Shown here in pieces: positions 401-63,610 of a stretch of 64,000 bases of DNA (position 1 is the first letter of the stretch; every line of letters starts with the position of its first letter). Location: positions 8,116-72,115 of the forward strand of contig CAWIGO010000002.1 in assembly GCA_963835625.1 (NCBI GenBank), written 5' to 3'. The notes below the pieces were generated by a model. The model was not told the DNA's origin. It saw only the letters and a program-made list of their open reading frames with translations, and made no database searches. Position numbers and translations under genes: made by a program. This stretch comes from an uncultured Verrucomicrobiae bacterium. Its GTDB lineage: Bacteria > Verrucomicrobiota > Verrucomicrobiia > Limisphaerales > UBA11358.

Positions 401-1417
401 ATGTCTGAACGGCCCATTTCCACTTTAAACAAACCCGACCCGGCATTGGAACTGACGCTGCGCCCGTCGCTATTTTCCGAATTCACAGGTCAGTTAAAAG
501 TCAAAGAACGTCTGGAAATCGCCGTCGCGGCCGCCAAAAAGCGGAAAGAGGCGCTCGACCATATTTTATTGAGCGGCCCGCCCGGCCTCGGCAAGACCAC
601 GCTCGCCTACATCCTCGCCAAAGCCATGGGCGCAAACGTCAGGAGCACCAGCGGCCCGACCATTGAAAAAGCGGGCGACCTCGCCGGCCTGCTCACCAAT
701 CTCGAAGAAGGCGACGTGCTGTTCATTGACGAAATCCATCGCCTGCAAAAAACCATCGAAGAATATCTTTATCCGGCGATGGAGGATTTCAAACTCGATA
801 TCATCATTGATCAGGGACCAAACGCCCGCAGCGTCCGCCTGAACCTGCCCCGGTTCACCCTGATTGGCGCGACGACCCGCAGCGGCCTGCTCACCGCGCC
901 GTTGCTGACGCGCTTTGCCATCCGCGAACGGCTTGATTATTACGTGGCCGAAGATTTGGAGAAAATCGTCGTCCGCTCCGCGCGGTTGCTGAAGGTGGAA
1001 ATCGAACCCGCCGGCGCGCATGAAATCGCCCGGCGCAGCCGCGGCACGCCGCGCATCGTGAACAACCTGCTCCGCCGCGTCCGCGATTACGCGCAGGTCC
1101 GTCACGACGGCCGCATCACCGCCGCCGTTGCCGACAAGGCGCTGGCCATGCTGGAAATTGACCAGAACGGTCTCGACGAAATGGACAAGCGCATCATCGA
1201 AGCCATCATCGTGAAATTCGGCGGCGGACCGGTCGGTCTCAATTCTCTTGCCGTGGCCGTGGGTGAAGAGCCGGACACGATTGAGGAAGTTTACGAGCCG
1301 TATCTCATCATGGAAGGTTTTCTGAACCGCACGTCGCAAGGCCGCATGGCAACGGAATTGAGTTACAAAAAGCTGGGTTTGAAACCGGCGGCGGGGAATC
1401 AAACGCGGTTGCTTTAG
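401..1417 (+). CDS. ruvB: Holliday junction branch-migration helicase RuvB
   Basis: ORF 365..1417. AAA+ Walker [10 protein letters not shown] and Walker B DEIHR, RuvB-like over the full length. Start moved to ATG 401 (MSERPIS). Confidence 0.95.
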
Positions 1418-1431
1418 CCACAGATTAAATT

Positions 1432-2979
1432 ATGCCTAAACGGACGGACATTCATTCAGTGCTCATCATCGGCGCCGGACCGATCATCATCGGGCAGGCG
1501 TGCGAGTTCGATTATTCCGGCACGCAGGCTTGCAAGGCGCTCAAAGAGGAAGGCTATCGCGTCGTTCTCGTCAACTCCAACCCGGCCACCATCATGACCG
1601 ACCCGGAGTTCGCCGACCGCACCTACATCGAGCCGATTACACCCGAGTGCGTCGAGAAAATCATCGTGCGCGAATTGGAAGAGATGAAACGGATGGGCGT
1701 GCCTGTCGGCCAATCCGCAATCCGCAATCCGCAATCCGCAATTCCACATAAACTCGTTTTGCTCCCGACGCTCGGCGGCCAGACGGCGCTGAACACGGCG
1801 ATGGCCCTCTACCGCAGCGGCGTGCTGGATAAATACGGCGTCGAGATGATTGGCGCGAATGACAAAGCCATCGAACGCGGCGAAGACCGGCAGGTTTTCA
1901 AAGACCTTATGCTCTCCATCGGCCTCGACGTTCCGATTTCCGGCACCGCGCATAACATAGAGGAAGCCCGCGCTGTGACGGACAAGATTGGACGATTTCC
2001 TGTCATCATTCGTCCGGCGTTCACGCTGGGCGGCACCGGTGGCGGCATCGCCTATAACCGCGATGAATTCGACGAACTCGCCAGGCGCGGCATGGAGCTT
2101 TCGCCCGTCAACGAAATCCTCATCGAAGAATCGCTGCTCGGCTGGAAGGAATATGAAATGGAGGTCATGCGCGACAAAGCCGACAACTGCGTCATCATCT
2201 GCTCCATCGAGAACTTCGACCCGATGGGCGTCCACACCGGCGATTCCATCACCGTCGCGCCCATCCAGACGCTGACGGACAAGGAATTCCAGATCATGCG
2301 CGACGCCAGCTTCGCGGTGATTCGCGCGGTGGGCGTCGAGACCGGCGGCTCCAACATCCAGTTTGCCGTCAACCCGGACAACGGCCGCATGGTCATCATC
2401 GAGATGAACCCGCGCGTCAGCCGCAGCTCCGCGCTGGCGTCCAAGGCAACGGGCTTTCCCATCGCAAAAATCGCCGCCAAACTCGCCGTTGGCTACCTGC
2501 TCGACGAACTCAAAAACGACATCACGCGCGAAACCCCGGCTAGCTTCGAGCCGAGCATTGATTACGTCGTCATCAAGATTCCGCGGTTTGCCTTCGAGAA
2601 ATTCGCGCAGGCCGACCCGACTCTGACAACCCAGATGAAAAGCGTGGGCGAAGCGATGGCGATTGGCCGCACGTTCAAGGAAAGCCTGCAAAAATGCCTG
2701 CGCTCGCTGGAGATTGGTCGCAGCGGTCTGGGCGGCGACGGCAAACCCTGGCGCATCGGCACGGAAGTCTATGGCGACCGCGACATCCTGCCGAAGGACG
2801 TCATCAGCCGCAAATTGAGCGTACCGAATGCCGAACGGATTTTCTTCATCCGGCATGCATTGCGGGCAGGATTCACAATTGAGGAAATCTTCCAACTGAC
2901 CAAGATTGACAGATGGTTTTTAGTCCAAATAAAAGAAATCGTGGACTTCGAAGAAGAACTCGCCACGGCTAAACACTAA
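1432..2979 (+). CDS. carB: Carbamoyl-phosphate synthase large subunit, N-terminal half only (split CarB)
   Basis: CPSase ATP-grasp motifs ([43 protein letters not shown]). Stops at residue 515 just after the [11 protein letters not shown] motif of the oligomerisation domain. Confidence 0.9.
1712..1746. repeat. 7-bp-period tandem array (AATCCGC x4 plus one degenerate unit) inside carB
   Basis: Direct reading. Translates in frame as [11 protein letters not shown]. Confidence 0.9.
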
Positions 2980-2989
2980 AATGACCGCT

Positions 2990-3079
2990 TCATTCCGCAA
3001 TCAGCTTGGCCGCTGGTTTCTGACGCAGATCAAAGAAATCGTAGATTTTGAAGAAGAGTTGGCGGCAGCGAAGAATTAG
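2990..3079 (+). repeat. Diverged second copy of the carB-N 3' terminus (encodes [22 protein letters not shown]-stop)
   Basis: Protein-level match to the carB end ([22 protein letters not shown]-stop) with the stop codon at the equivalent position. Confidence 0.85.
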
Positions 3080-3083
3080 TCAG

Positions 3084-3134
3084 GTAGGGCGCGCCACTCC
3101 GTGCGCGCCGGTGGGGCGAGCGTCCTCGCGAGCC
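3084..3134. repeat. REP-like pair: GTAGGG head plus hairpin, followed by a GTGGGG unit
   Basis: GTAGGGCGCGCCACTCCGTGCGCGCC followed by GGTGGGGCGAGCGTCCTCGCGAGCC. Confidence 0.6.
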
Positions 3135-3221
3135 GTAACTAAAATTAGGAAACTTGAAGTCACAAACTGTGACCTCAAAGGTAGTCGCAACCTGTGACCA
3201 CCTCTCAGAGAAAGGGAAAAA

Positions 3222-3777
3222 ATGAATGGGCAAATGGCGGTGGTTCCGATGGAACGAATTGAAAGGGCAATCTTCTCCATTCGCGGCGAAAAGGTGATGC
3301 TGGACAGCGATCTGGCTGAACTTTATGGGGTAGAAACGAAGGCCTTGAATCAGGCCGTCAAACGCAATGCCAATCGCTTTCCAGAAGACTTCATGTTCCA
3401 ACTCACTGCAGGTGAGGTCTTTAAGCTGAACCGGTCACAAATTGTGACCGGTTCCCAGAAGCACCGCGATCCACGTTTTCCGCCTTACGCCTTCACCGAA
3501 CATGGGGCATTGATGCTGGCTAACGTGTTGAACAGCGAGCGGGCGGCGCAAACCAGCGTTCAGGTGGTGCGTGCGTTCGTGCGGCTGACGGCAAATGCTG
3601 GCTTCCAATGCCGAATTGGCGCGGAAACTCGCGGCGGTTGAAAATAAATACGACCGACAGTTCAAAGTTGTCTTTGACGCCATCCGACAGTTAATGTCTC
3701 CACCGGAAACCAAGTGGCGCGAAATCGGATTTCATGTGAAATATGACGACGACAAGCCAAAATCAAAGAAGCGATAG
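3222..3777 (+). pseudogene. ORF6N (KilA-N-like) domain protein, frameshifted near 3590-3600
   Basis: ORFs 3222..3641 and 3595..3777 together rebuild a typical ORF6N protein (IRGEKVMLDSDLAELYGVETKALNQAVKRNANRFPEDFMFQLT ... [33 protein letters not shown]). Confidence 0.8.
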
Positions 3778-3782
3778 TGACG

Positions 3783-3810
3783 CTCAACCCTCAACCATGA
3801 ACTCTCAACC
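3783..3810. repeat. 7-bp-period tandem array (CTCAACC units)
   Basis: ctcaacc ctcaacc atgaact ctcaacc, read directly. Confidence 0.7.
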
Positions 3811-3814
3811 GACT

Positions 3815-3880
3815 TCGTTTCTGGTGCAGGTTAAAGAGATTGTGGATTTTGAGGAAGAACTGGCGGGGGCGACGAAATGA
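3815..3880 (+). repeat. Diverged third copy of the carB-N 3' terminus (encodes [21 protein letters not shown]-stop)
   Basis: Protein-level match to the carB end with the stop at the equivalent position. Confidence 0.8.
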
Positions 3881-3917
3881 AATAATCCGGCAAAACTGCA
3901 ATCTGAAAGGTAAAGCT

Positions 3918-5069
3918 ATGACTACGGATAACTATATTATGATATTCCTCGTAGCAACCTTGTTCGTCTTCGGGACATTCGCGTTGCAAATGTTTTTCAG
4001 ATGGCAGCGAGAAACGAATAAAGACCGGCACGCGGAGGAACAAGCAAGTCGAGAGCAGATGGCCGTTTTTCAGAAAATGCAACAAGAGGCTTCGGAAAGG
4101 CAATCCGCGCATTTGGCTCAAATTTTGCACAGCACGTTGAAATCACAAGAGGACCTTCAGCGTAAAGTCACAAGCCAAGAACCACGCGAAGACGCGGGCT
4201 TAAACGCAGGTGGCTACATAATTTTCGACATACCCGAAGCGAAAAAAAGCATGTTTCACGACTTACTCAAAGGTTTCGAGGATTATGCAAAACTGAGGGG
4301 ATACGTAATAAACTTTTCAATTGACAATTCTTTTTCAAACAAGGTCGCTTTCAAGTTCACATTGGATAGCAGTGGGATCGTCGTCTCGACAAAGCAGGTG
4401 CGCCAAGATTTTAAGGATTACATTGAAAAGATTCAGAGGGGAGATTCCTTGGATGATTTGCCTGTGGTTTTATCGCAAGAAGAACACGCCACCTTACTTG
4501 CTTGCATGAAAACACGGATCAACTTCTTACAGCACAATTACAACATGGAGAAGACTGAAAAGGAGTTTTATCGTCGGTTGGTAAGCGAACTACCAAAACT
4601 TGGGTTTGGAATTGCACCTCTGCAAAACTTTTTTTTGCAAGCGGGCAATTCAAACCAGGCATCCAGCTACCATGCTCTGAATTCGCCCCAAGCCGCTGTA
4701 GGGGTGGGAAACCGCCTAATTGGCAATACGATTGACCAAAGCATTTACATTGCAGATTCGTTCAACGGAAGAACTGAACAGGTTCATGCAGTGTCGGATT
4801 TATGGCTAAAGCTTTGCGATGAATGTAAAAAGCTGCCTGAAGGTAGCCCGGAACACAAAGAATGTTCAAAAGCTATAGATAACCTGCGTAAGGTTGAAAA
4901 CGAGATGAGGGAAGGCGAGCCTCCTGAGCCCAATCGAATTCACAAATGGCTTGAACAGACCAAATACGCGCTTAAAGCGTTCGGGTTGACTAAGGAAATA
5001 ATTGATGCTGGGCGAAAACTTGAAGAAGCGTTTCATCTTTCGGATTGGATCGCGCCCCTCATTTCCTGA
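3918..5069 (+). CDS. Hypothetical protein: N-terminal TM helix, charged coiled-coil segment, unknown C-terminal domain
   Basis: Long ORF in a visibly AT-richer stretch. ATG 3918 is preceded by aaagg. No recognisable motif. Confidence 0.6.
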   Translation: MTTDNYIMIFLVATLFVFGTFALQMFFRWQRETNKDRHAEEQASREQMAVFQKMQQEASERQSAHLAQILHSTLKSQEDLQRKVTSQEPREDAGLNAGGYIIFDIPEAKKSMFHDLLKGFEDYAKLRGYVINFSIDNSFSNKVAFKFTLDSSGIVVSTKQVRQDFKDYIEKIQRGDSLDDLPVVLSQEEHATLLACMKTRINFLQHNYNMEKTEKEFYRRLVSELPKLGFGIAPLQNFFLQAGNSNQASSYHALNSPQAAVGVGNRLIGNTIDQSIYIADSFNGRTEQVHAVSDLWLKLCDECKKLPEGSPEHKECSKAIDNLRKVENEMREGEPPEPNRIHKWLEQTKYALKAFGLTKEIIDAGRKLEEAFHLSDWIAPLIS

Positions 5070-5185
5070 AAGCGCGTTGAAGCGGGTTGAATCCCGCGTT
5101 CCGTCCGCGCATCCCAACGGAATGGACTCACTCGCTCCTGCTCGCTCGGCCCTTGCAGGCCTTCGGCTTCGCCGCCACCTGATTC

Positions 5186-5259
5186 AACCGCGAAACACAC
5201 GAACCACGCGAAAAGAAAAATCCGGACTCCGGTTCGCGTATTTGGCGTCTTTCGCGGTT
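5186..5259. repeat. Imperfect inverted repeat (CGCGAA / TTCGCG-rich arms)
   Basis: Arms 5186-5212 and 5233-5259 are about 21/27 complementary. Confidence 0.5.
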
Positions 5260-5354
5260 TGCCCTGCCGCCGTCTCCCACTTTCCCCGTGCTGCACCCAA
5301 AACGCTTCGGTTTGAATTGAGTTATCCGCCGAGCTTCTTCATTCTGCGAATCAT

Positions 5355-6189
5355 CATGGGCGCAAAACAGAACTCCTCCCGCCGCGCGGATGAATACGTC
5401 CACGGTTATTCGGAGCGCGAGGATCAACGGCTTCGCGATCAAGCACAAACGCTGGCGGAATTGTTGCATCAAGACACATTTTATCCGGTCGGAAGCCGCG
5501 TGCTTGAAGCCGGCTGCGGCGTCGGCGCGCAAACGGTCATTCTGGCGAAGAACAGTCCCGGCGCGCGGTTCACGTCCGTGGATATTTCGCCCGTGTCGGT
5601 GAAGGCGGCGGAAGCGGCGGTTCACCGCGCGGGTTTTTCCAACGTTACTTTTCGGCCGGCAAACATTTTCAAGCTGCCATTTCCGAAGGCGAGTTTCGAT
5701 CATGTGTTCGCGTGCTTCGTGCTGGAACATTTGAAAGAGCCAGCCAAAGCGCTGCGGTGTTTGAAGGCGGTTCTGAAGCCGGGCGGGACGCTGACGGTCA
5801 TCGAAGGCGACCACGGCTCGACTTTATTTCATCCGCGCAGTGACGCGGCGTGGAAGACCATCCAGTGCCTGATTGATCTTCAGGCGGAGGCGGGCGGTGA
5901 TGCGCTGATTGGCCGGCGGCTGTTTCCCCTGGTGCGTGCGGCGGGTTTTCGCAAGGTCAAGGTTTCGCCACGCTTTGTTTATGTGGACGCCAGCCGTCCC
6001 GCGTGGGTGGAGGGATTCACGCGCAACACTTACATCGCCATGGTGGAAGGCGTGCGCGACCGCGCACTGGCGGCGGGATTGATTGGCCGGCGGGCATGGG
6101 AAAAAGGCATCGCCGACTTGAAGGAGAGCGCCGGTTCGAGCGGTGTGTTTTGTTACACCTTCTTCAAAGCGGTGGCGGTGAAAAGTTAA
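5355..6189 (+). CDS. Class I SAM-dependent methyltransferase
   Basis: Motif I VLEAGCGVGAQT and Methyltransf_11-like layout. Start set at ATG 5355 (MGAKQNSS). Confidence 0.8.
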
Positions 6190-6294
6190 CTCGTCCGGAG
6201 GCAACCATCCCCCGTTTTCCCCGCGCTTCCGTCCTCGCTTCGCTGCGACCAGTTGCGTTGAAACCCGCGCGAAAGGGATGATTTCTTCCGCGCG

Positions 6295-7047
6295 TTGTGT
6301 CATCATGAAGTCGTGGCGCGACACCAATCCCATCGCGGGCCGGCTTCCAAGAACGAACAGCTCTTTGGCGCGCGTCAGCTTCCCGCGTTATGCACCGCCA
6401 TGCAAGACCTCTGCTGGCTGCTCGACCGTGGTTACGCTTCGCACTCCGCCACCGAACTCGTCGGCAACCGCCACAATCTCACCAGCCGCCAGCGCATGGC
6501 GGTGGGCCGTTGCGCCTGTTCTCTCGACGACGCGCAACATCGCCGTCGCCTTCAGCTCCAGCCTGCGGATGTCCGTGGCCGGGAACTCTGGCTGGACGGT
6601 TACAACGTGTTGACCGTGCTTGAAAGCGCGCTTGCCGGCGGCGTGGTGTTGCTGGGCCGCGACGGTTGTTGCCGCGACATCGCCGGCATTCACCGCCGTT
6701 ATCGAAAAGTGAATGAGACCGCAACCGCGCTGCGCATGGTCGGTGAAACCGCGGCGGGCTGGGGAGTGACGTGTTGCCGTTGGTGGCTGGACAAACCGGT
6801 GTCGAACAGCGGGCGGCTCAAGACGCTCATCAAGGAAATGGCCGCCAGCGCCGGTTGGAACATGCCGGTGGAACTGGTGTTCAATCCCGACCGCGTTCTG
6901 TGGGAAAGCGAACACGTCATCGCCACGTCCGACGGTGTCGTGCTGGATCGTTGCCGGCAATGGGTGAACCTGACTCGGCAAATCATCATGGAGCGCATCC
7001 CACAGGCGCGGCTGCTGAATTTGTCTTGTCCCGACGGGACAAGGTAG
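6295..7047 (+). CDS. DUF434-like conserved hypothetical protein
   Basis: HRGP...LF...L..A..DL.WLLDRGY....ELVGNRHNLTSRQRMAV pattern recalled from the DUF434 family. Start uncertain. Confidence 0.55.
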   Translation: MCHHEVVARHQSHRGPASKNEQLFGARQLPALCTAMQDLCWLLDRGYASHSATELVGNRHNLTSRQRMAVGRCACSLDDAQHRRRLQLQPADVRGRELWLDGYNVLTVLESALAGGVVLLGRDGCCRDIAGIHRRYRKVNETATALRMVGETAAGWGVTCCRWWLDKPVSNSGRLKTLIKEMAASAGWNMPVELVFNPDRVLWESEHVIATSDGVVLDRCRQWVNLTRQIIMERIPQARLLNLSCPDGTR

Positions 7048-7058
7048 TGTCTTAGTTT

Positions 7059-7113
7059 GGTAGGGACGCCTCGCCGAGGCGTCCGCGGACGGCTAGGGCC
7101 AGCCGTCCCTACC
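7059..7113. repeat. REPIN: two inverted REPs, each a GTAGGG head plus an 8-9 bp stem
   Basis: GGTAGGGACGCCTCGCCGAGGCGTCC ... GGACGGCTAGGGCCAGCCGTCCCTACC. Confidence 0.8.
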
Positions 7114-7244
7114 ACAGCAATTAGGACACTGCCTGGCACATCGTGCCAGGTTCACCGTCCTTTTAACCTCCCACCAAAGCTGGGGGTTGAGACCCGGACG
7201 GCATGTGCTAACTTGCAAGCGTGGCTCATATTCAAATTAAGATA

Positions 7245-7850
7245 ATGTCCTGTGCGGTGATTACCGGGGCGTTGTGGCTTTGCACCCGCACCGTTCTGCC
7301 GGCTGACCCGCTGACGTCGCAATCATCCAACATCAACAGCAATATCGTGAAAACTTTTCAAAAACCTTCCGAAACGGAATTGAAAAAGAAACTGACCACC
7401 GAACAATTCGCGGTCACGCAGAAATCAGCCACCGAGCCGGCGTTCCACAATGCCTATTGGGACAATCACAAGCCGGGTATTTATGTGGACGTGGTGTCGG
7501 GCGAACCGCTGTTCAGTTCGCTGGACAAGTTTGATTCAGGGTGCGGCTGGCCGAGTTTCACCAAACCCGTCTCCAACGCGGAAATCACCGAACGTTCGGA
7601 TCATTCCTATGGCATGGACCGCACTGAAGTAAGGTCAAAAACCGCCGATTCGCACCTCGGGCATTTGTTCGATGACGGACCGGGACCGACGCATTTGCGT
7701 TATTGCATCAACTCAGCATCATTGCGGTTCATTCCCGTCGAAAAAATGCAAGCGGAAGGTTACGGCGCTTATCTGAAGCCGTTCATTAAAGCCGGCCTCT
7801 ACAAATCGGCGGCCGCGCAATCTCAAACCAACAATCCGCCGAAGAATTAA
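7245..7850 (+). CDS. msrB: Peptide-methionine (R)-S-oxide reductase MsrB with signal peptide
   Basis: SelR motifs [37 protein letters not shown]. Confidence 0.9.
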
Positions 7851-7870
7851 CAGCAAGCGCGGTTTTTTTC

Positions 7871-7930
7871 GGTGGGGCGAGCGTCCCCGCGAGCCGGAAA
7901 TTTCGGTCGCCTCGGCGAGGCAACCCTACC
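7871..7930. repeat. REPIN (GTGGGG unit plus inverted GTAGGG unit)
   Basis: GGTGGGGCGAGCGTCCCCGCGAGCC ... GGTCGCCTCGGCGAGGCAACCCTACC. Confidence 0.75.
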
Positions 7931-7934
7931 TTGC

Positions 7935-8657
7935 TTACTTCATCGCCACATACACGCGATGCACATCGTCGTGATCGTCAAGGGCGTTGAGGAAGTCCAC
8001 GACTTGTTTGCGATTGGCTGCGCTGATTTCGGGGAAATTCTTGGCGATGTAACGAATTTCAGCGGCGATGACGTTCCAACCGGCGGCCTTCAACGCCTTG
8101 GAAACGTGGTCGAGGTCTTTGATCTCGGTCAAAAACCGCGCGCCCTTCTGTCCGGCGGGAACTTCGTCGGATTCAAGCGGTTCGATTTCCTGCGCACCAG
8201 CTTCAATGGCATCGCCTTCGGCGTCGCGGTTGGCGTCGGTGTGCGTGGCTTCGACGACCCCGAGATGATTGAAGAAAAATGCGACGCTGCCCGGCTGGCC
8301 GAGTGAGCCGGCCTTGAACAAATTGCGGATTTCCGGCGCAGTGCGGTTGCGACTATCGGTGAGACACTCAACAATGACCGGCACCTTGTGCGGCGCGAAC
8401 CCTTCGTAGGTGACCAATTCGTAATTGACCTTTTCCGTGTCGAGTCCGGCGCCCTTCCTGATGGCACGTTCGATGGTGTCGCGGTAAACGGAGGCTTTCT
8501 TGGCTTTTTCGACGGCGGCGAAGAGGCGCGGATTGAGGTCGGGATCAGGTCCGCCGAGTTTGGCCGCGACCATGATTTCGCGGGCCAGCTTGACGACCAT
8601 CTGGCCTTTTTTCTGCGCGTTGATTTCGCGTCCGGATTGTTTCCATTGTGCGCCCAT
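7935..8657 (-). CDS. YebC/PmpR family transcriptional regulator
   Basis: 240 aa. N-terminus MGAQWKQSGREINAQKKGQMVVKLAREI..AAKLGGPDPDLNPRL is typical of YebC. Confidence 0.9.
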   Translation of the reverse strand: MGAQWKQSGREINAQKKGQMVVKLAREIMVAAKLGGPDPDLNPRLFAAVEKAKKASVYRDTIERAIRKGAGLDTEKVNYELVTYEGFAPHKVPVIVECLTDSRNRTAPEIRNLFKAGSLGQPGSVAFFFNHLGVVEATHTDANRDAEGDAIEAGAQEIEPLESDEVPAGQKGARFLTEIKDLDHVSKALKAAGWNVIAAEIRYIAKNFPEISAANRKQVVDFLNALDDHDDVHRVYVAMK

Positions 8658-10382: not shown

Positions 10383-11831
10383 ATGGACGACACGAATTCA
10401 TTGATCGAACAACGCAAGGCCAAGCTGACCGCGTTGCGCGCCAAGGGCATTGACCCGTTCAAAAATAAATTCACGCCCGGCGAAACCTGCGAGCATGCGC
10501 GCGACCATTACGCCGAAGGCCGTGAAGTCGCCATTGCCGGTCGCATTACCGCGCACCGCGAGATGGGCAAAAGCATGTTCATTGACGTGCGCGACCAGAG
10601 CGGACGCATCCAGGCTTACGCGCAGAAAAATGTCCTCGGCGACGAGCAATTCGACATCTTCCGGCATCTCGACCTCGGTGATTTCATCGGCGCACGTGGA
10701 CATTTGTTCACAACCAAAACCGGTGAAATTTCCATCAAGCTCGCCAGCTTCACGATTCTGGCCAAGGCGTTGCGTCCGCCACCGGCGAAATGGTATGGAC
10801 TTGAAGACACGGAAATCCGTTACCGCCAACGTTATCTCGATTTGATGGCGAATCCAGAAGTGAAGGATGTTTTTTTCAAGCGCAGCCAAATCATCGCCGA
10901 GATCCGGAATTTTCTACATTCGCGCGGCTTTGTGGAAGTCGAGACACCGATGATGCAGGCGATTCCCGGCGGCGCGGCGGCGCAACCGTTCAAGACGCAT
11001 CACAACGCACTCGGCTGCGATTTTTATCTGCGCATTGCGCTGGAACTTTACCTTAAGCGTCTGCTTGTCGGCGGTGTGGACAAGGTTTTCGAGATTGGCC
11101 GCATCTTCCGCAACGAAGGTTTTTCGCGCAAACACAATCCCGAATTCACGATGTTGGAACTCTATCAGGCCTACGGCGATTACGAGAGCATGATGGAACT
11201 CATGCAAGGCATGGTCTGCCACGTTGCGCAAAAAGTTTTGGGCACGCTGAAAATCGAAACCAAAGACGCCGGGGGCAAGGTCACCAAAACAATTGATCTC
11301 ACGCCGAACTGGAAGCGTGTGAAATACAAGGATCTTGTGCGTGGAAAAGCGGGCGCGGATTGGTTTGACGTTTCACCAAAGGAACGGCACGAGCGCGCAA
11401 TCAAACTCGGCGCAGAGATTGCGAAGGACTACGAAGATTTTGAAGTCACACAGGCCGTATTCGAGAAGCTGATTGAACCAACACTTATCAATCCGACGTT
11501 TGTGACACACGCGCCGAAGGAATTGATTCCACTCGCCAAACTTTCACCCGACGATCCGACGACCGTCGAAGTTTTTGAGTGCTGCATCAACGGCCAGGAA
11601 ATCGCGCCTGCTTACACCGAACAGAACGACCCGATTGAGCAGCGCGAACGGCTGGAGCATCAGGCCGGCGGCGAGCAGCAAAAGCTGGATGAAGATTTTC
11701 TTGTCGCGCTCGAACATGGCATGCCTCCGGCGGGTGGCATGGGCGTGGGCATTGACCGTTTGTGCATGATGCTGCTCGGTCAGGAAAGCATCCGCGACGT
11801 GATTTTATTCCCGCAGTTGAAGCCAAAATAA
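10383..11831 (+). CDS. lysS: Lysine--tRNA ligase (class II)
   Basis: 482 aa with class II motifs ([33 protein letters not shown]). Confidence 0.95.
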   Translation: MDDTNSLIEQRKAKLTALRAKGIDPFKNKFTPGETCEHARDHYAEGREVAIAGRITAHREMGKSMFIDVRDQSGRIQAYAQKNVLGDEQFDIFRHLDLGDFIGARGHLFTTKTGEISIKLASFTILAKALRPPPAKWYGLEDTEIRYRQRYLDLMANPEVKDVFFKRSQIIAEIRNFLHSRGFVEVETPMMQAIPGGAAAQPFKTHHNALGCDFYLRIALELYLKRLLVGGVDKVFEIGRIFRNEGFSRKHNPEFTMLELYQAYGDYESMMELMQGMVCHVAQKVLGTLKIETKDAGGKVTKTIDLTPNWKRVKYKDLVRGKAGADWFDVSPKERHERAIKLGAEIAKDYEDFEVTQAVFEKLIEPTLINPTFVTHAPKELIPLAKLSPDDPTTVEVFECCINGQEIAPAYTEQNDPIEQRERLEHQAGGEQQKLDEDFLVALEHGMPPAGGMGVGIDRLCMMLLGQESIRDVILFPQLKPK

Positions 11832-11842
11832 GCTGTTAAATT

Positions 11843-12499
11843 TCAATCTTCCAACCATTCAATAATTTCGTGATCTCTACGCATATCAAATTTGGCGTAA
11901 TCTTCTCTTGAAGCATCGAATCCGTATTTCAAATGATACATAAGTGATTTTCCGTCTTCCGGATCATGTTTAAAACACACCTCATACCAAACTGTTTGCA
12001 AATTAAATTGCTGATGGAATACGTTCATAATTCCACGAATGAGTGCAAGCGCAGCTGTGATTTCTGAAAATTGAATCGTTGGCAAAGGGATTTCCTTCAT
12101 CTGCCTTAAGAGGTCGTTGTGCGCTATTTTCTCGTCACGCCAAGTTTTGACGGCTTTCATTTTCCCTTTGAGTGCTAAAATCTGTTGTGACACCTGACTT
12201 TGCAGACTTGCATCTTTAATTTCTAACACGAGATTATCAAACGACAGATTTTCTTTGACGATTGATTTAACTTTTGTTTTAGGTGGGTCTGTCAGCCTAG
12301 CGATGGAAAGAAGAATATCAAACAGCATTAAATTCCAGAGGTAGCCGAAAAATACTGGCGCTGTTTCATTCAACAATTTCACCTTCCTATCGCTGCCAAA
12401 AACCTGTTTGAAGTGTTTCCACTTGTAGTGCAATCGCACCACTTCAGCGTCAATGGCTTTGATCTTATTTTTAAGTGTGTCTGGCATATTGGCGGCCAC
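11843..12499 (-). CDS. HEPN-domain protein, AbiU2-like
   Basis: 218 aa, helical, with an R-x5-H motif (WRDEKIAHND). AT-rich. Overlaps the upstream GIY-YIG gene by 29 nt. Confidence 0.55.
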   Translation of the reverse strand: MAANMPDTLKNKIKAIDAEVVRLHYKWKHFKQVFGSDRKVKLLNETAPVFFGYLWNLMLFDILLSIARLTDPPKTKVKSIVKENLSFDNLVLEIKDASLQSQVSQQILALKGKMKAVKTWRDEKIAHNDLLRQMKEIPLPTIQFSEITAALALIRGIMNVFHQQFNLQTVWYEVCFKHDPEDGKSLMYHLKYGFDASREDYAKFDMRRDHEIIEWLED

Positions 12500-13310
12500 G
12501 TTTTAGAGTTACGCCCAAACGTCGTAGGCGACTCGATATGCCATGATGGTCTATGTTAAACAACCGCCCGATTTCGCGGCACGATTTGCCTTCTGAATGT
12601 AATTTTAGACAGGCCTGATCCATTTCTTCTGCACTATTAAAACCTAAAGATTTTCTGTTAAATTTTTCAAAATAGATTTTTCGAAGCCCTGCGGTTCTCG
12701 ATGGTAACTTTCTAATTTTATCCAAAAGCTGAACCAGCGGGTTGTAAATTTCTGGACGTTTGAGGGCTGCTGTAAAACCAGCTATGCGCTTGGCTTCATT
12801 TTCCGGCGAATGCAACCATTTTTGCGCGTTCTTTCTCCATTCTGGATTTTTTGCATGACGTTGTTTCAGTGCTTCAGAAACTCGCTTGTGAGTGTCAGGC
12901 GTCCATACGCCTCTGCGATACCCACGAATTTTCTTCTTCTGTGATTCGGTCCATTTGTAACCGCGGGTTGATTCTGCTTTTGGCGCAGAATTGAAGTTTC
13001 TCGTGTAAGCATGGAAATGATCCATCCAGAATTGTTCCCGTTCATCTAACCGTTTGCTCTCGCCAACCTTTTCCAACAAAATAGCTGTGAAAGCTCCTTG
13101 GCCATATTTGTTCCATGCTCTTTGCAAATGTCTTGAGTGATGTCGTTTTGCTAGAAGCGCCCGTAAATGCTGGTTGAGCCGCTTCCGAACAATTTTCGAG
13201 CTGCCAACATAGATTCTGCCACTGGCATCGTGCCGGATGCCATAAACGCCACAACATTGGAAATCAATTGATAAGCGATTGTTGAATATGCTTTCAATTA
13301 TTCCGAGCAT
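12471..13310 (-). CDS. GIY-YIG homing-type endonuclease (I-TevI/Seg-like architecture with a C-terminal HTH)
   Basis: GVYGI...RIYVGSS, conserved R (KRLNQHLR), E (REQFWMDHF), and a C-terminal HTH (SCREIGRLFNIDHHGISSRLRRLG). Confidence 0.8.
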   Translation of the reverse strand: MLGIIESIFNNRLSIDFQCCGVYGIRHDASGRIYVGSSKIVRKRLNQHLRALLAKRHHSRHLQRAWNKYGQGAFTAILLEKVGESKRLDEREQFWMDHFHAYTRNFNSAPKAESTRGYKWTESQKKKIRGYRRGVWTPDTHKRVSEALKQRHAKNPEWRKNAQKWLHSPENEAKRIAGFTAALKRPEIYNPLVQLLDKIRKLPSRTAGLRKIYFEKFNRKSLGFNSAEEMDQACLKLHSEGKSCREIGRLFNIDHHGISSRLRRLGVTLKRGRQYARHT

Positions 13311-13323
13311 GGTAGAAGTTTAA

Positions 13324-13482
<159 letters not shown>

Positions 13483-13556
13483 TGTAGGACAGGCATCTTG
13501 CCTGTCTCCATTATTTGAAATATGAAGTTAGAGACAGGCTGGAAGCCTGTTCTACA
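13483..13556. repeat. REPIN (GTAGGACAGGC-hairpin and inverted GTAGAACAGGC-hairpin)
   Basis: TGTAGGACAGGCATCTTGCCTGTCTC ... GAGACAGGCTGGAAGCCTGTTCTACA. Confidence 0.8.
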
Positions 13557-59531: not shown

Positions 59532-62435
59532 ATGGACTATAAAAACACATTGAATTTGCCGCGCACCGATTTCCCAATGAGGGCCGATTTGGTGGCGCGC
59601 GAGCCTGAACGGTTGAAAAAGTGGGGGGCGGCGAGGCTTTACGAAAAAATCCAGGCTGACCACGCCAATGTGAAGGAAAAGTTTGTCCTGCACGATGGTC
59701 CGCCGTTTGCCAACGGCGACGTGCACATCGGCACCGCGCTGAACAAGATTCTCAAGGATATCATCGTCAAATACAAGACCTTGCGTGGCTTCAGCACGCC
59801 CTACATTCCGGGTTGGGATTGCCACGGATTGCCCATCGAATTCAAGGTTTCACAGGAGATGCGGAAAGGCCAGAAGTCAGAAGTCGGAAGTCAGAAGCCG
59901 GATCCCGATCGATTTTCGCCGTCCGCGATTCGCAAAGCTTGCGAAGCTTACGCCCGCAAGTTCATTGACATCCAGCGAACTCAATTCAAACGGCTCGGCG
60001 TGCTCGGCGATTGGGACAATCCCTATCTCACATTCAATAAAGAATACGAGGCCGACGAACTGCGCCTGTTCGCCGACATCGTTGAAAAGGGTTTTATCTA
60101 TCGCGGCAAAAAGCCGGTTTACTGGAGCATCCCTTGCCACACCGCGCTGGCTGAAGCCGAGGTCGAATATCAAGACCACGTTAGCCCCAGCATCTATGTA
60201 AAATTTCCGGTCGTCGGCCAGTCAAAAACTTTTATCCTGATCTGGACGACCACTCCATGGACTCTGCCGGCGAATCTCGCGGTGGCTTACAATTCGAAGT
60301 TCCAATACGTGAAGGTCCGCGTCGGCGATGAAAATTACATTCTGTTCCGCGGTCTGCTGGCCGCTGTCGCGGGAAAATGCGGTTGGAGCAATTGCAAAGA
60401 ACAACCGTTTCCAACCAAAAAGCTTGCTGTGCTGCAGTTTCAGCATCCATTCTGTAGTCGCACTGGCAGGTTTTATCCCGCTGACTTTGTTGCCAGCGAC
60501 ACTGGCACGGGCTTCGTCCATATCGCACCGGGACACGGCTTGGAGGACTATCAACTCGGCTCATCTGTCGGTCTGCCGATTTATTCGCCGGTGGATGATG
60601 ATGGTAAGTTCATGCACACGAACGATTTGCCCGTTGAGCAACAGATGCCGTCAGAGATGGTTGGCAAATCCATCCTCGAAAAACATGGCAAGAGCGATGC
60701 GAACGAAGCAGTGCTACATGAACTGCGCGTTCGTAAGGCGCTGTTGCACCAGGAAGATTATCACCACAGCTATCCGCATTGCTGGCGCAGCAAAACGCCA
60801 ATCATTTTCCGCGCAATGGATCAATGGTTCATCGAAATTGACCATGAGAAATTCCGTGACCGTGCTCTGGCAGAAATTGACCGCGTGAACTGGATTCCCG
60901 ATTGGAGCGTCAATCGAATTAAAAGTGCCGTGCAAACTCGTCCCGACTGGTGCATCTCGCGCCAGCGCACTTGGGGTGTGCCGATTCCCGCGTTCTACGA
61001 TGCGAAAGGAAATCCGATTCTCGATGCACAAATTGTTCGCAACGCGGCTGATTTGATTGAAAAGCATGGTTCAAATATCTGGTTCGAAAAATCCGCTGCG
61101 GAACTTTGGTCGCTGGTGAAACCGAAGAATTGGAATGGACCAGAAGCCGTCACCAAATCCAACGACACATTGGATGTGTGGATCGATTCGGGAAGTTCGT
61201 CGCGAAGTGTGCTGATGCGGCGGACGGAACTCCATCATGAGGTAGGGCGCGCTGTCCCCAGCGCGCCGCGGCGCAGTGAGAACACTGCGCCCTACCAGGC
61301 TTGGCAAGCCGACATTTATTTCGAAGGCTCCGACCAGCATCGCGGCTGGTTTCAATCGTCACTGCTGCTGTCACTCGCGGGCAACGGGGCCGCGCCGTTT
61401 AAGACGGTGCTTACGCACGGATTCATGGTGGATGCCGACCGCGAAAAGATTTCCAAGAGCAAACAAAGCCAGGGCGGCTACGAAAAACCGCAGACATCCG
61501 AAGCCTATGTGAAGAAATGGGGCGCGGATATTGTGCGCCTGTGGGTTTCGTCGCAGGATTTTCGCAACGACATCATTGTGAGCGAGGAGCGCATCAACAA
61601 GGTGGCCGAGACCTACCGCGTCATCCGCAACGCGCTGCGTTATCAACTTTCGAACCTTTACGACTTCGATCCGGCAAAACACACCGTGCCGGACGACAAG
61701 CTCACCGGTCTCGACCGCTGGATTCTCGGCGAATTCTCGAAACTGGAGCGGGAAGTCATCGAGGCTTACGATAAATACGAATTTCACGTCGTCTATCAGG
61801 AGGTCAGCCAGTTCATTGCTGTTGAGTTGTCCTCGATTTACCACGACGTCATCAAAGACCGGCTTTACACCGACCCGGCGAATTCGCATCGCCGCCGCTC
61901 GACGCAGACGGCGTTGCACCGGCTCGTGACCGGCCTGTGCCAGATGCTCGCGCCGGTTCTGGCGTTCACGGCAGACGAAGCGTGGGAGTTTGTGCCGGGG
62001 AAAAAGGTGAATTCCGTTCATAAAGCGAATTGGAAACTAATTAAATTCTCGCTGACGGGATCTGAAATAGAAGATTGGGAATATTTATTCGTAGCGCGCG
62101 AAATCTGGTTGCCAATGTTGGAACAGAAACGTCGCGACAAAACTATCGGGAAATCTCTGGACGCTAAAATCCGACCTGTAACCGAACAAATGCCAGAATT
62201 GGCAAATAGCGAAAAACTTCAAGACACATTCAAAGAGTTGTTGAATGTTTCGCAGCTTGAATTTTTATCTTACAAAGGCAATCCAGAAGCCGATTTTACA
62301 GGCAAATTAGTCGTTCATGCTGATGGGCAAAAATGCGAGCGTTGTTGGCATTGGGAAACCGATATCGGTCAGAACAAGGAACATCCGACGCTTTGCGGTC
62401 GTTGTGTCGAGGCGGTGATTCAATTTAAGACGTAA
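59532..62435 (+). CDS. ileS: Isoleucine--tRNA ligase
   Basis: HDGPPFANGDVHIGT (HIGH), KISKSK (KMSKS), EGSDQHRGWF, C-terminal Cys cluster CERCWH...CGRC. Confidence 0.96.
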   Translation: MDYKNTLNLPRTDFPMRADLVAREPERLKKWGAARLYEKIQADHANVKEKFVLHDGPPFANGDVHIGTALNKILKDIIVKYKTLRGFSTPYIPGWDCHGLPIEFKVSQEMRKGQKSEVGSQKPDPDRFSPSAIRKACEAYARKFIDIQRTQFKRLGVLGDWDNPYLTFNKEYEADELRLFADIVEKGFIYRGKKPVYWSIPCHTALAEAEVEYQDHVSPSIYVKFPVVGQSKTFILIWTTTPWTLPANLAVAYNSKFQYVKVRVGDENYILFRGLLAAVAGKCGWSNCKEQPFPTKKLAVLQFQHPFCSRTGRFYPADFVASDTGTGFVHIAPGHGLEDYQLGSSVGLPIYSPVDDDGKFMHTNDLPVEQQMPSEMVGKSILEKHGKSDANEAVLHELRVRKALLHQEDYHHSYPHCWRSKTPIIFRAMDQWFIEIDHEKFRDRALAEIDRVNWIPDWSVNRIKSAVQTRPDWCISRQRTWGVPIPAFYDAKGNPILDAQIVRNAADLIEKHGSNIWFEKSAAELWSLVKPKNWNGPEAVTKSNDTLDVWIDSGSSSRSVLMRRTELHHEVGRAVPSAPRRSENTAPYQAWQADIYFEGSDQHRGWFQSSLLLSLAGNGAAPFKTVLTHGFMVDADREKISKSKQSQGGYEKPQTSEAYVKKWGADIVRLWVSSQDFRNDIIVSEERINKVAETYRVIRNALRYQLSNLYDFDPAKHTVPDDKLTGLDRWILGEFSKLEREVIEAYDKYEFHVVYQEVSQFIAVELSSIYHDVIKDRLYTDPANSHRRRSTQTALHRLVTGLCQMLAPVLAFTADEAWEFVPGKKVNSVHKANWKLIKFSLTGSEIEDWEYLFVAREIWLPMLEQKRRDKTIGKSLDAKIRPVTEQMPELANSEKLQDTFKELLNVSQLEFLSYKGNPEADFTGKLVVHADGQKCERCWHWETDIGQNKEHPTLCGRCVEAVIQFKT
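59872..59899. repeat. 7-bp-period tandem array (AGAAGTC-type, 4 units) inside ileS
   Basis: agaagtc agaagtc ggaagtc agaagcc. In frame as QKSEVGSQK. Confidence 0.85.
61241..61296. repeat. REPIN inserted in frame within ileS
   Basis: GGTAGGGCGCGCTGTCCCCAGCGCGCC + GCGGCGCAGTGAGAACACTGCGCCCTACC. Terminal GGTAGGGCGC/GCGCCCTACC inverted repeat and two internal hairpins. Translates as EVGRAVPSAPRRSENTAPYQ. Confidence 0.85.
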
Positions 62436-62455
62436 AAAGAAAATGCAAAATCCAA

Positions 62456-63313
62456 TTACGCATACAGTCCGTCAACCTGCAACAACGCTAGTTGCGGTGG
62501 CAACCATTCGCTGCCAAGCAATTTGGCGTTCTTACTTTCGTTGCACTGTCCACATGACATGCAAATATTTTCTGGGGAATGCGACCCGCCACGAGCTAAA
62601 GCTACGATGTGTTCAACGTGCATGTTCTTTGTCAAAAACCTCTTGGCACAATATGCACAATCGGCGTGCCTATGTGACAGCATTTGAATGATTTTAAGAT
62701 CGGCGGCTTTAATTTGTTCGGGCGTGCTGTTTTTATATTTGCGGGCGCGGCGGCGATGCCCTTTGGCGCGCACCTTGTCGGGATTGTTAGCCGCCCACCT
62801 TGCGTTAATTATTTTCTTAAAATCTCGGTTTTCAGACCGCCATTTCGCCGAATATTTGACGTTTCTTTCAGGGTGTTGTTTATTCCATTCTTGAATTCTG
62901 GATAGCACCTGATTCCTATTTTTAAGATAATATTTTTTGACAGAGGCTATCTTCTGCCGCCTTACTTCGAGATAATGTTTTGCATCGTATATTTTCTTCC
63001 GCTTGTTATTTTCAGGGTGGGCAGCTTTATACGTCGGCCATTTCGCTAAAATCGCGCCGCGATTTTTGGCATACCACGCCGCGTTTGTGGCTTTGCGCCT
63101 TTCCTTATTTTCCGCCCGCCATTTCGCATCAGCGGCTTTTTTTCGCTCCTTATTTTCACTGACCCATTTCCGGTTACTTGATCTCTCACGATCCTTGTTT
63201 TCGAGATAACGCTTTATCCTATTTGCTTTCTGCGTTGCCCGATTATTTGCATACCATCTTACTTGATAGTCTTTCTGCTTTTTTCTTTGTTCGGGCGAGA
63301 GGATACGTTTCAC
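62456..63313 (-). CDS. HNH endonuclease with a long N-terminal array of ~15-aa basic (W/Y)xxxN repeats
   Basis: HNH core HVEHIVALARGGSHSPENICMSCGQCNESK. About 10 repeat units such as WVSENKERKKAADAK and WRAENKERRKATNAA. AT-rich. Convergent with ileS. Confidence 0.8.
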   Translation of the reverse strand: MKRILSPEQRKKQKDYQVRWYANNRATQKANRIKRYLENKDRERSSNRKWVSENKERKKAADAKWRAENKERRKATNAAWYAKNRGAILAKWPTYKAAHPENNKRKKIYDAKHYLEVRRQKIASVKKYYLKNRNQVLSRIQEWNKQHPERNVKYSAKWRSENRDFKKIINARWAANNPDKVRAKGHRRRARKYKNSTPEQIKAADLKIIQMLSHRHADCAYCAKRFLTKNMHVEHIVALARGGSHSPENICMSCGQCNESKNAKLLGSEWLPPQLALLQVDGLYA

Positions 63314-63399
63314 AATTTTGACTTTGCGCCGGGCAAAAATTTTGTCCAGAAAAAATCACACCGGCTGCTGCTGCGTGAGGCGTGCAACGAACCGACAAC

Positions 63400-63560
63400 A
63401 AACCAAGCCCCGTCAGGGGCGACATATTTGTAGAAATCGCATCCCAAAACATTTCCAAGCTCCGTCAGGAGCGGCATATTCCGTTCGCCACCAGACGATG
63501 CCGCTTCTGACGGAGCTTGGGATTTCTACAAAACGCAAAACTACAAATATGCCGCGCCTA
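63400..63560. repeat. MITE-like hairpin repeats (CCGTCAGGAGCGGCATAT family)
   Basis: ccaagctccgtcaggagcggcat (63451-) and atgccgcttctgacggagcttgg (-63517) form an inverted repeat. Related half-sites lie at about 63400-63440 and 63535-63560. Confidence 0.6.
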
Positions 63561-63565
63561 CGGCG

Positions 63566-63610
63566 CTTTGCGGCCGTTGTGTCAAAGCAGTAAAACGGTT
63601 CAAGGCATAA
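63566..63610 (+). pseudogene. Diverged second copy of the ileS 3' terminus
   Basis: Encodes (PTA)LCGRCVKAVKRFKA-stop against (HPT)LCGRCVEAVIQFKT-stop at 62391-62435. About 33/45 nt identical by hand count, with the stop aligned. Confidence 0.6.

Follow-up and report, generated by a model that had tools for sequence, protein, structure and literature searches.

The 64,000-nucleotide (nt) stretch of DNA analysed here (the window; contig CAWIGO010000002.1 of an uncultured Verrucomicrobiae bacterium) carries, at the 3' end of the lysyl-tRNA synthetase gene lysS, two overlapping genes that encode a GIY-YIG endonuclease and a protein with an AbiU2-family HEPN domain. An initial annotation had proposed the two genes as a defence or addiction module, possibly riding on a homing element. 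We find that they are bracketed by a duplication of the lysS 3' end, that the pair recurs at other target sites and that each gene also occurs without the other. Segment 11692-13482 is best read as a homing-endonuclease cassette, compact and free-standing, at the lysS 3' end, and we consider it rather probable that the HEPN gene is co-mobilised, defence-type cargo on this cassette and not half of a toxin-antitoxin pair.

Results

A duplicated lysS 3' end brackets the two genes

The initial annotation had delimited the module to 11843-13310. Both open reading frames (ORFs) are indeed found there, on the minus strand, but the feature that defines their context, the duplicated lysS 3' end, lies outside these limits. 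Alignment of the flanks revealed a direct repeat of 139 nt, with 93.5-94% identity between the copies at 11692-11830 and 13343-13481 (Table 1). The first copy constitutes the last ~46 codons of lysS, on the cassette side of the duplication. The second is a remnant that is no longer joined to the lysS body and whose translation still matches Pfam tRNA-synt_2 (E=4.5e-18). The copies differ at 9 positions, of which 8 are silent and one changes V to M. Past the remnant, the first of two hairpins is followed by a T-run (terminator scan, 13487-13507; folding energy -19.8 kcal/mol, z=-4.4). This hairpin probably served as the lysS terminator before the insertion and now lies 1.65 kb away from the stop codon of that gene. 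The segment therefore shows the order of an mORF-type element, with an in-frame inserted 3' end, an endonuclease ORF (12471-13310) and a displaced 3' remnant, and lysS is probably a hybrid gene with a donor-derived end. The proposal that the module rides on a homing element is supported.

The insert is fully occupied by the two genes: the stop codons of lysS and of the convergent HEPN gene are 11 nt apart, and the endonuclease start lies 32 nt from the remnant. The GC content is 0.42 in the bin 12001-13000, within the cassette, versus about 0.55 around it. The leader upstream of the endonuclease gene (13311-13342) is kept in the lysS cassettes of two related metagenomic loci, L045 and L051, though the lysS remnants there begin at another codon. 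Metagenome depth was 2-5x over the cassette versus 10-170x over the flanks, a comparison confounded by relatives.

A 27-nt stretch of lysS (11466-11492) has an inverted match (78%) in the endonuclease gene, at the 5' end of its coding sequence (13267-13293). The lysS side covers the codons for KLIEPTLIN, where the remnants of the L045 type start. The match is probably due to chance.

The endonuclease is of the free-standing I-TevI type

The GIY-YIG call was borne out by matches to Pfam GIY-YIG (E=1.6e-10, over the gathering score), to NCBIfam TIGR01453 'group I intron endonuclease' (86.8 bits versus a cut-off of 56) and to PHROGs and PADLOC homing-endonuclease models. Residues G21, Y23, Y34, V35, G36, R44, H48, E92 and N107 are invariant or nearly so among 20 homologs. 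The ratio of non-synonymous to synonymous substitution (dN/dS) of the gene is 0.11-0.25. No relatives of the endonuclease were found among 2.9 million viral contigs. A group I intron, as the JGI label 'group I intron endonuclease' might suggest, was considered and rejected, as the duplicated end, not splicing, completes lysS; no Rfam search was made.

The DNA-binding helix-turn-helix (HTH) that had been assigned to the endonuclease is recovered as a weak, sub-threshold match to HTH_38 (E=0.006, residues 236-264), and homologs likewise give faint matches to HTH_23, HTH_28 and HTH_7. A segment of ~60 amino acids (aa) that is repeated in sister proteins supports a modular domain. The second copy of this segment, present in the endonucleases found without a HEPN gene, is missing from the HEPN-linked ones, and the HEPN gene occupies the position where it would be.

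The second gene encodes an AbiU2-family HEPN protein

The description of the second product as an AbiU2-like HEPN protein with an R-x5-H motif was upheld by profile and motif. The protein matches Pfam HEPN_AbiU2 (PF18734) over residues 8-165 with E=1.3e-19 and 70.8 bits (cut-off 26.8), as do all 29 homologs (29/29). The motif residues R121 and H127 are invariant in 26 homologs and sit in the block R-[ND]-x-x-[IL]-A-H-N-D-L. Its AlphaFold model is a confident one (pLDDT 86.8) and almost all-helical, with one short beta hairpin. PHROGs returned nothing for this protein. The dN/dS of the gene is 0.11-0.26, including comparisons between cassette copies at different targets. Such values in both members of the pair indicate real genes and not chance ORFs and, by this sequence measure, both genes are under purifying selection.

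Counted from a GTG codon, the HEPN ORF encodes 218 aa; from a conserved ATG at 12487 it encodes 214 aa, as in homologs and in the database copy P0001, and this ATG is probably the true start. The two genes do overlap as had been described, but the reported 29 nt hold for the GTG start only; the overlap is 17 nt from the ATG, and 8 or 17 nt in other loci. The HEPN gene has no Shine-Dalgarno sequence of its own and starts inside the end of the endonuclease gene, and its translation is probably coupled to that of the endonuclease. The gene upstream of it is this endonuclease gene, not one for an AbiU1-type or Sel1-repeat partner.

The pair recurs at other targets and with another nuclease

Besides the window, at least five metagenomic loci carry a unit of a GIY-YIG endonuclease gene and a HEPN gene. 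In three of them the unit abuts the gltX stop codon (L004-6/L061, L048 and L055); the other two, L007/8 (near a rubrerythrin gene) and L071, carry it elsewhere. Co-conservation of the pair, on which the initial annotation had made its proposal depend along with the HEPN profile, is therefore seen: the profile searches recovered the family and the co-occurrence holds. Between the window cassette and those of L048, L055 and L004, the homologous DNA extends from the endonuclease start (±~15 nt) to within ≤4 nt of the HEPN stop and not beyond, which indicates that the two genes are the mobile unit. No gltX remnants were found at the gltX cassettes at the DNA or protein level, and these cassettes may therefore sit just past the stop codon. 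At lysS in L001-3/L011, the gene overlapping the HEPN gene encodes an HNH endonuclease (82 aa, E=9.7e-10). A presence/absence pattern at conserved genes, with signs of repair-mediated insertion, is apparent from three features: the lysS-end duplication of the window, the related lysS cassettes with their stacked remnants and recoded ends, and the pair unit at gltX.

The two genes do not share one history throughout. The endonucleases of L004 and L007 are 83% identical and their HEPN proteins only 61%, and the L007 HEPN is closest to that of an operon with a Sel1 partner. This disagreement between the endonuclease and HEPN trees indicates that HEPN alleles were exchanged or captured more than once. 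L055 carries the HEPN gene broken into two ORFs; in L048 the HEPN and endonuclease ORFs are fused, and the adjoining gltX on the contig is also split. The GIY-YIG/HEPN fusion (P0031) was accordingly discounted as 'Rosetta stone' evidence, since the split gltX on the same contig points to indel errors.

Two further loci were noted. The contig of L001/L011 (DATJRH010000015.1) bears the label 'Candidatus Aquilonibacter' (Vulcanimicrobiota), yet the neighbours of its lysS are syntenic with those in L045, which may reflect mis-binning or a large transfer. Cross-phylum transfer of the cassette was dropped as an explanation, as the lysS gene there is 77-90% identical in DNA to that of the window and the neighbours are syntenic. 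In L019 (Reyranella metagenome-assembled genome (MAG), 1128-4508), guaA is followed by a 263-aa protein with the PD-(D/E)xK-like motif GTPDVIGV...EIKAV and then by an AbiU2-like HEPN gene; by this motif, L019 may represent a third nuclease family paired with an AbiU2 HEPN.

Sister endonucleases occur at lysS without a HEPN gene

Each gene of the pair is found without the other at high identity (75-80% for endonucleases, 85-92% for HEPN proteins), which argues against an obligate two-gene system. Among the endonucleases without a HEPN gene, those of 75-80% identity are found at lysS (L045-47 and L051-52); further endonuclease loci of this kind are L049/50, L053, L054, L056, L057 and L059. The displaced lysS remnants in L045-47 and L051-52 span 124 codons. 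In-frame lysS ends there have only 76-78% DNA identity to the window lysS 3' end, to which the displaced remnants of these loci are 84-87% identical. Each in-frame end departs from its own remnant at only a few of the last ~120 residues.

Several copies of the lysS end are stacked in related loci: four in L045, three in L051 and three or four pieces in L001, where an extra remnant is found past an ABC-F gene. The copies of L045 are separated by single genes, encoding a GIY-YIG endonuclease, a DUF4268 protein, a DUF433 protein and a 76-aa ORF, after which comes an ABC-F gene. Such stacked copies are probably traces of serial invasions, and the cassettes in the stacks that have no endonuclease may have moved in trans or through recombination between repeats.

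The lysyl-tRNA synthetases of L001, L045 and L051 contain a poorly conserved insertion of 110-160 aa near codon ~300 of the window lysS, which is missing from the 482-aa enzyme of the window. An intein was rejected for this insertion, a variable segment without intein boundary residues. In L053 (527-3138), guaA is followed by a GIY-YIG endonuclease gene of the window's clade. The window itself has a second homing cassette without a HEPN gene, at 59532-63607, in which an HNH endonuclease gene and a diverged ileS remnant with 50% aa identity over 30 residues follow ileS (Table 1).

HEPN relatives occur without an endonuclease

The HEPN gene is found without an endonuclease in L009/10 and L064-70. 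The closest relative (P0002, 92%) lies after a gene for a 536-aa ankyrin protein and before a trypsin-like gene, near hsdS. The gene before P0004 (86%) encodes an ankyrin protein with a zinc ribbon, and those before P0003 (85%) and P0011 (59%) encode a Sel1-like protein of 383-391 aa with a zinc ribbon and a transmembrane segment. These non-cassette partners have an N-terminal double zinc ribbon in common, with either a transmembrane helix and a Sel1-like repeat or ankyrin repeats behind it, and the loci resemble two- or three-gene systems in their own right. A Sel1 partner has been noted for AbiU2 (PMC3710099), in agreement with the partners of P0003 and P0011. In L070, the trypsin-like gene runs over the stop codon of the HEPN gene, and in P0018 a protease and a HEPN protein are fused.

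The AbiU2 family, classed among the HEPN Abi families (PMC3710099), comprises 2,374 clusters at 50% identity, of which the window's clade is one. Distant relatives stand alone in 17 viral contigs, adjoin genes for TIR, PIN, WYL and DUF4238 proteins, integrases or recombinases, or lie directly after class II ribonucleotide reductase (RNR), polA, valS and guaA genes, as well as between hypF and hypD and between hisS and aspS. No 3'-end duplication was detected near the distant AbiU2 genes by RNR, polA, valS and hisS, and no nuclease gene was found at L023-L025, L031, L033 and L017. The RNR, polA, valS and hypF/hypD neighbours are typical homing or intein targets or conserved operons. The hisS-aspS gene, on the same strand in three Acidobacteriaceae MAGs (L036, L038 and L039; ~4500-8600), has neither an endonuclease nor a detectable duplication beside it and looks stably inherited. 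In a Verrucomicrobiae MAG (L012, 5986-7543), a HEPN gene whose product is 43% identical precedes one for a TIR-domain protein (TIR_2, E=1.4e-15), in a defence-island-like setting. In L042, 31-nt direct repeats (97% identical; 5935-5964 and 6626-6656) flank a distant AbiU2-like gene in the manner of a cassette boundary. At a functional level, a preprint reports that a single-gene integron cassette encoding an AbiU2-HEPN protects against T4 and T7 (bioRxiv 10.64898/2026.03.17.712381).

Table 1. Coordinates of the cassette, of the second cassette in the window and of features in related loci (positions preceded by a locus name refer to that locus, all others to the window).
Feature	Position	Strand	Basis
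lysS, lysyl-tRNA synthetase, 482 aa, intact	10383..11831	+	Pfam tRNA-synt_2 (E=7.7e-88), OB anticodon domain
Repeat copy 1, lysS 3' end in use, in frame	11692..11830	+	Repeat search, family D1
AbiU2-family HEPN gene	11843..12499	-	Pfam PF18734, motif, dN/dS, junction sequences
GIY-YIG homing endonuclease, free-standing, 279 aa, I-TevI type, single putative C-terminal HTH	12471..13310	-	Pfam, NCBIfam, PHROGs, PADLOC
Short leader upstream of the endonuclease gene, outer cassette end	13311..13342	-	Junction comparison
Repeat copy 2, displaced lysS 3'-end remnant, codons ~438-482, stop to 13482	13343..13481	+	Repeat search, alignment
Two hairpins, from the remnant to a convergent extracytoplasmic function (ECF) sigma-factor gene	13483..13556	.	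Terminator scan, folding, inverted repeat I1
ileS, 967 aa	59532-62435	+	
HNH endonuclease, 285 aa, GC 0.45, convergent, 20 nt from ileS stop	62456-63313	-	
Diverged remnant of the ileS C-terminal zinc finger	~63518-63607		
Stacked lysS-end arrays	L045 2900-6400; L051 4100-6400; L001 3140-6700		
Zinc-ribbon partner loci	L009 4798-5973; L064 1350-2702; L070 2280-3890; L066 1-774		
Distant AbiU2-like genes next to core genes (class II RNR, polA, valS, hypF/hypD)	L023-L025, L031, L033 (valS), L017		

Discussion

We favour a model in which the GIY-YIG enzyme would cut a cassette-free lysS near codon 438, just upstream of the region coding for class II motif 3, and in which repair from a cassette-bearing donor would copy in a slightly recoded lysS end together with the HEPN and endonuclease genes. 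The native lysS end and its terminator would be pushed downstream as a dead remnant; as lysS is left intact, the insertion should be cheap for the host. The AbiU2-type HEPN gene would have been picked up as cargo by the endonuclease lineage, in place of the second HTH repeat, and the two genes would now travel as one unit. The HEPN protein would most likely be an RNase-type effector of abortive infection or defence, like other stand-alone AbiU2 HEPNs. Its benefit would give the host a reason to keep a selfish cassette, slowing the usual decay of a fixed homing element, and from the endonuclease the defence gene would in turn gain mobility and a harmless place to insert.

Several points weigh against this model. 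With only 6% difference between the lysS-end copies of the window, position and terminator are what assigns one of them to a donor. No clean empty-site allele was recovered from the peat metagenome contigs, which are too fragmentary, and a search for expression evidence found no RNA run. Foldseek and PADLOC had been proposed as checks in the initial annotation: the PADLOC homing model recognises the endonuclease, but no PADLOC model recognises the HEPN protein (no AbiU hit), and Foldseek of the HEPN model against PDB and BFVD gave no significant match. A sequence profile search of PDB returned nothing either, so that the HEPN assignment is carried by profile and motif; an AbiU2 structure seems not to have been solved. 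The cassette is also without the zinc-ribbon repeat partner of its closest non-cassette HEPN relatives, and the HEPN protein may be unregulated or inactive without it. In the original lactococcal AbiU work, resistance was reportedly ascribed to AbiU1 and not to AbiU2. Lastly, repeated acquisition at one position, the tight overlap and co-mobility fit equally well a HEPN protein that serves the cassette and not the host. Taken further, AbiU2 HEPNs would be integrated partners of site-specific endonucleases (GIY-YIG, HNH and perhaps PD-(D/E)XK) in 'armed' homing cassettes at core-gene ends, enforcing or assisting drive, which we hold to be unlikely. If true, such cassettes would colonise the ends of synthetase and other core genes and build stacked arrays, and the HEPN could punish loss or rival invasion, act on the tRNA/synthetase axis or manage convergent transcription into an essential gene.

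A more modest role within the element is that of an accessory, which would tune endonuclease expression, process convergent transcripts and so preserve lysS or gltX expression, or cut the mRNA of rival cassettes. The HEPN gene always lies between the endonuclease gene and the end of the convergent essential gene, a few nt from the stop codon of the latter. It was acquired or replaced more than once at exactly this position, it is linked to two and possibly three nuclease families (GIY-YIG, HNH and the PD-(D/E)XK-like protein of L019), and the serial invasions show cassettes competing at the lysS site. However, the convergent arrangement at lysS is also found with sister endonucleases that have no HEPN gene, the ileS/HNH cassette of the window has none, and the closest HEPN relatives stand in endonuclease-free contexts; we therefore regard this role as quite unlikely. 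The first two of these observations also lower the likelihood of a tie to tRNA biology, in which AbiU2-type RNases would act on tRNAs or synthetase transcripts and hence be associated with synthetase genes. AbiU2-like genes adjoin lysS, gltX, valS (L033) and hisS-aspS (the three Acidobacteriaceae MAGs), and synthetase adjacencies number 3 against ~0.35 expected by chance among ~28 independent genome loci, by a rough estimate; moreover, the HEPN nucleases PrrC and RloC are established to cut tRNA (PMC3710099). The preference of homing endonucleases for conserved genes, however, explains the association with synthetases without a functional tie. Other AbiU2 neighbours are RNR, polA, guaA and hypF, most family members are in ordinary mobile or defence contexts, and the cassette at ileS is without a HEPN gene although its target is a synthetase gene. 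A functional link of this kind appears highly improbable.

The addiction module suggested in the initial annotation would consist of a HEPN toxin restrained by the endonuclease protein or by antisense RNA from lysS read-through, so that loss or silencing of the cassette would poison the cell. HEPN domains do act as toxins in HEPN-MNT and other systems (PMC3710099), and the overlap and the missing ribosome-binding site of the HEPN gene indicate coupled expression. No terminator separates lysS from the convergent HEPN gene, so that transcripts reading through from lysS would be antisense to HEPN, and the cassette has no space for anything else. The last point cuts both ways, as no room is left for an antitoxin gene. 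Neither product has an antitoxin-type domain, the partner being a full-length GIY-YIG nuclease; AbiU2-like genes stand alone in viral contigs; and lactococcal AbiU2 expressed alone in E. coli was not toxic (PMC3985639). As the pairing is facultative in both directions, with no antitoxin-like partner and a non-toxic family member, a toxin-antitoxin pair is very unlikely. At the other extreme, the HEPN gene could be a neutral passenger, caught once by illegitimate recombination, functionless and decaying, as would befit the broken copies (the split gene of L055 and the fusion in L048, the latter maybe an assembly indel) and an endonuclease-linked clade that is a small twig of a very large family. 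The dN/dS of 0.11-0.26, maintained between copies at different targets, the invariant R-x5-H motif and the retention of the gene at three or more target sites and with two families of nuclease speak against decay, and make this possibility highly improbable. Defence-type cargo on a homing cassette is thus the reading that we retain.

All ingredients of this cassette are known: free-standing endonucleases of the I-TevI type, mORF-style replacement of 3' ends, and AbiU2 HEPNs. In fungal mitochondria, mORFs form gene hybrids in atp6 of Allomyces macrogynus and in atp6, atp9, cox2 and nad3 of Glomus (PMC3630166). The cassette shares with them the succession of gene body, inserted foreign C-terminal end, endonuclease ORF and displaced native C*-terminal remnant, the mostly silent changes between inserted and native ends, and horizontal spread; the Allomyces and Glomus mORFs include GIY-YIG-type enzymes (PMC3630166). 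Unlike mORFs, the cassette is in a bacterial chromosome and in an aminoacyl-tRNA synthetase gene, its endonuclease gene is convergent with the host gene and not in phase, it carries a second, non-nuclease gene, and its relatives show stacked remnant arrays. The phage T4 Seg proteins and the I-TevI family (TIGR01453) combine an N-terminal GIY-YIG domain with a C-terminal HTH-type module, of which the window protein has a putative counterpart. As for Seg, there is no intron or intein, and both would move when a double-strand break is repaired and flanking markers are co-converted, with tolerance for a switch of target (PMC2988022). The differences are that the window endonuclease is not in a phage, that the cassette duplicates the end of its target rather than sitting between genes, and that a HEPN gene stands in place of the second HTH repeat.

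With other AbiU2 HEPNs (PF18734; lactococcal AbiU, Vibrio mimicus integron cassette), the cassette protein shares an above-threshold profile match, a size of ~200-230 aa, a predicted helical structure, the R-x4-6-H motif and its nature as a small, mobile single gene. Their known contexts, in contrast, are Sel1-repeat partners, restriction-modification operons, integrons and prophages (PMC3710099), and no AbiU1-type or Sel1 gene lies upstream of the cassette HEPN gene as in lactococcal AbiU (AbiU1 and AbiU2). HEPN-MNT and other HEPN toxin-antitoxin pairs resemble the cassette as small HEPN genes in overlapping two-gene units on mobile DNA; in the cassette, by contrast, the HEPN gene is paired with a DNA endonuclease gene and not with one for a nucleotidyltransferase or any antitoxin-like protein, the pairing is facultative both ways, and toxicity is not in evidence. 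A link of AbiU2 to homing endonucleases or synthetase gene ends is absent from the searchable literature. The combination is likewise undescribed there: a bacterial chromosomal cassette in synthetase genes, with AbiU2 HEPN cargo, recurrence across targets and nucleases, and stacked arrays.

Defence genes ride on phages, plasmids, transposons and integrons. If the model is true, a bare homing endonuclease of a bacterial chromosome would be added to these vehicles, and the cassette, with two genes in 1.5 kb, would be about the smallest possible mobile defence element. Free-standing homing endonucleases are expected to decay once fixed, and their persistence in cellular genomes is an old puzzle, to which host-useful cargo would be one answer. 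Interest in the pair would rise if the HEPN protein proved to be functionally integrated with homing. In peat-soil bacteria, the ends of synthetase genes (lysS, gltX, ileS) are homing hot spots that gather stacked remnants and single-gene cassettes, and they provide a practical marker for new cargo genes. Mitochondrial-style 3'-end replacement thus appears to occur in bacteria too, which matters for phylogenies built from these genes, as their ends may be foreign.

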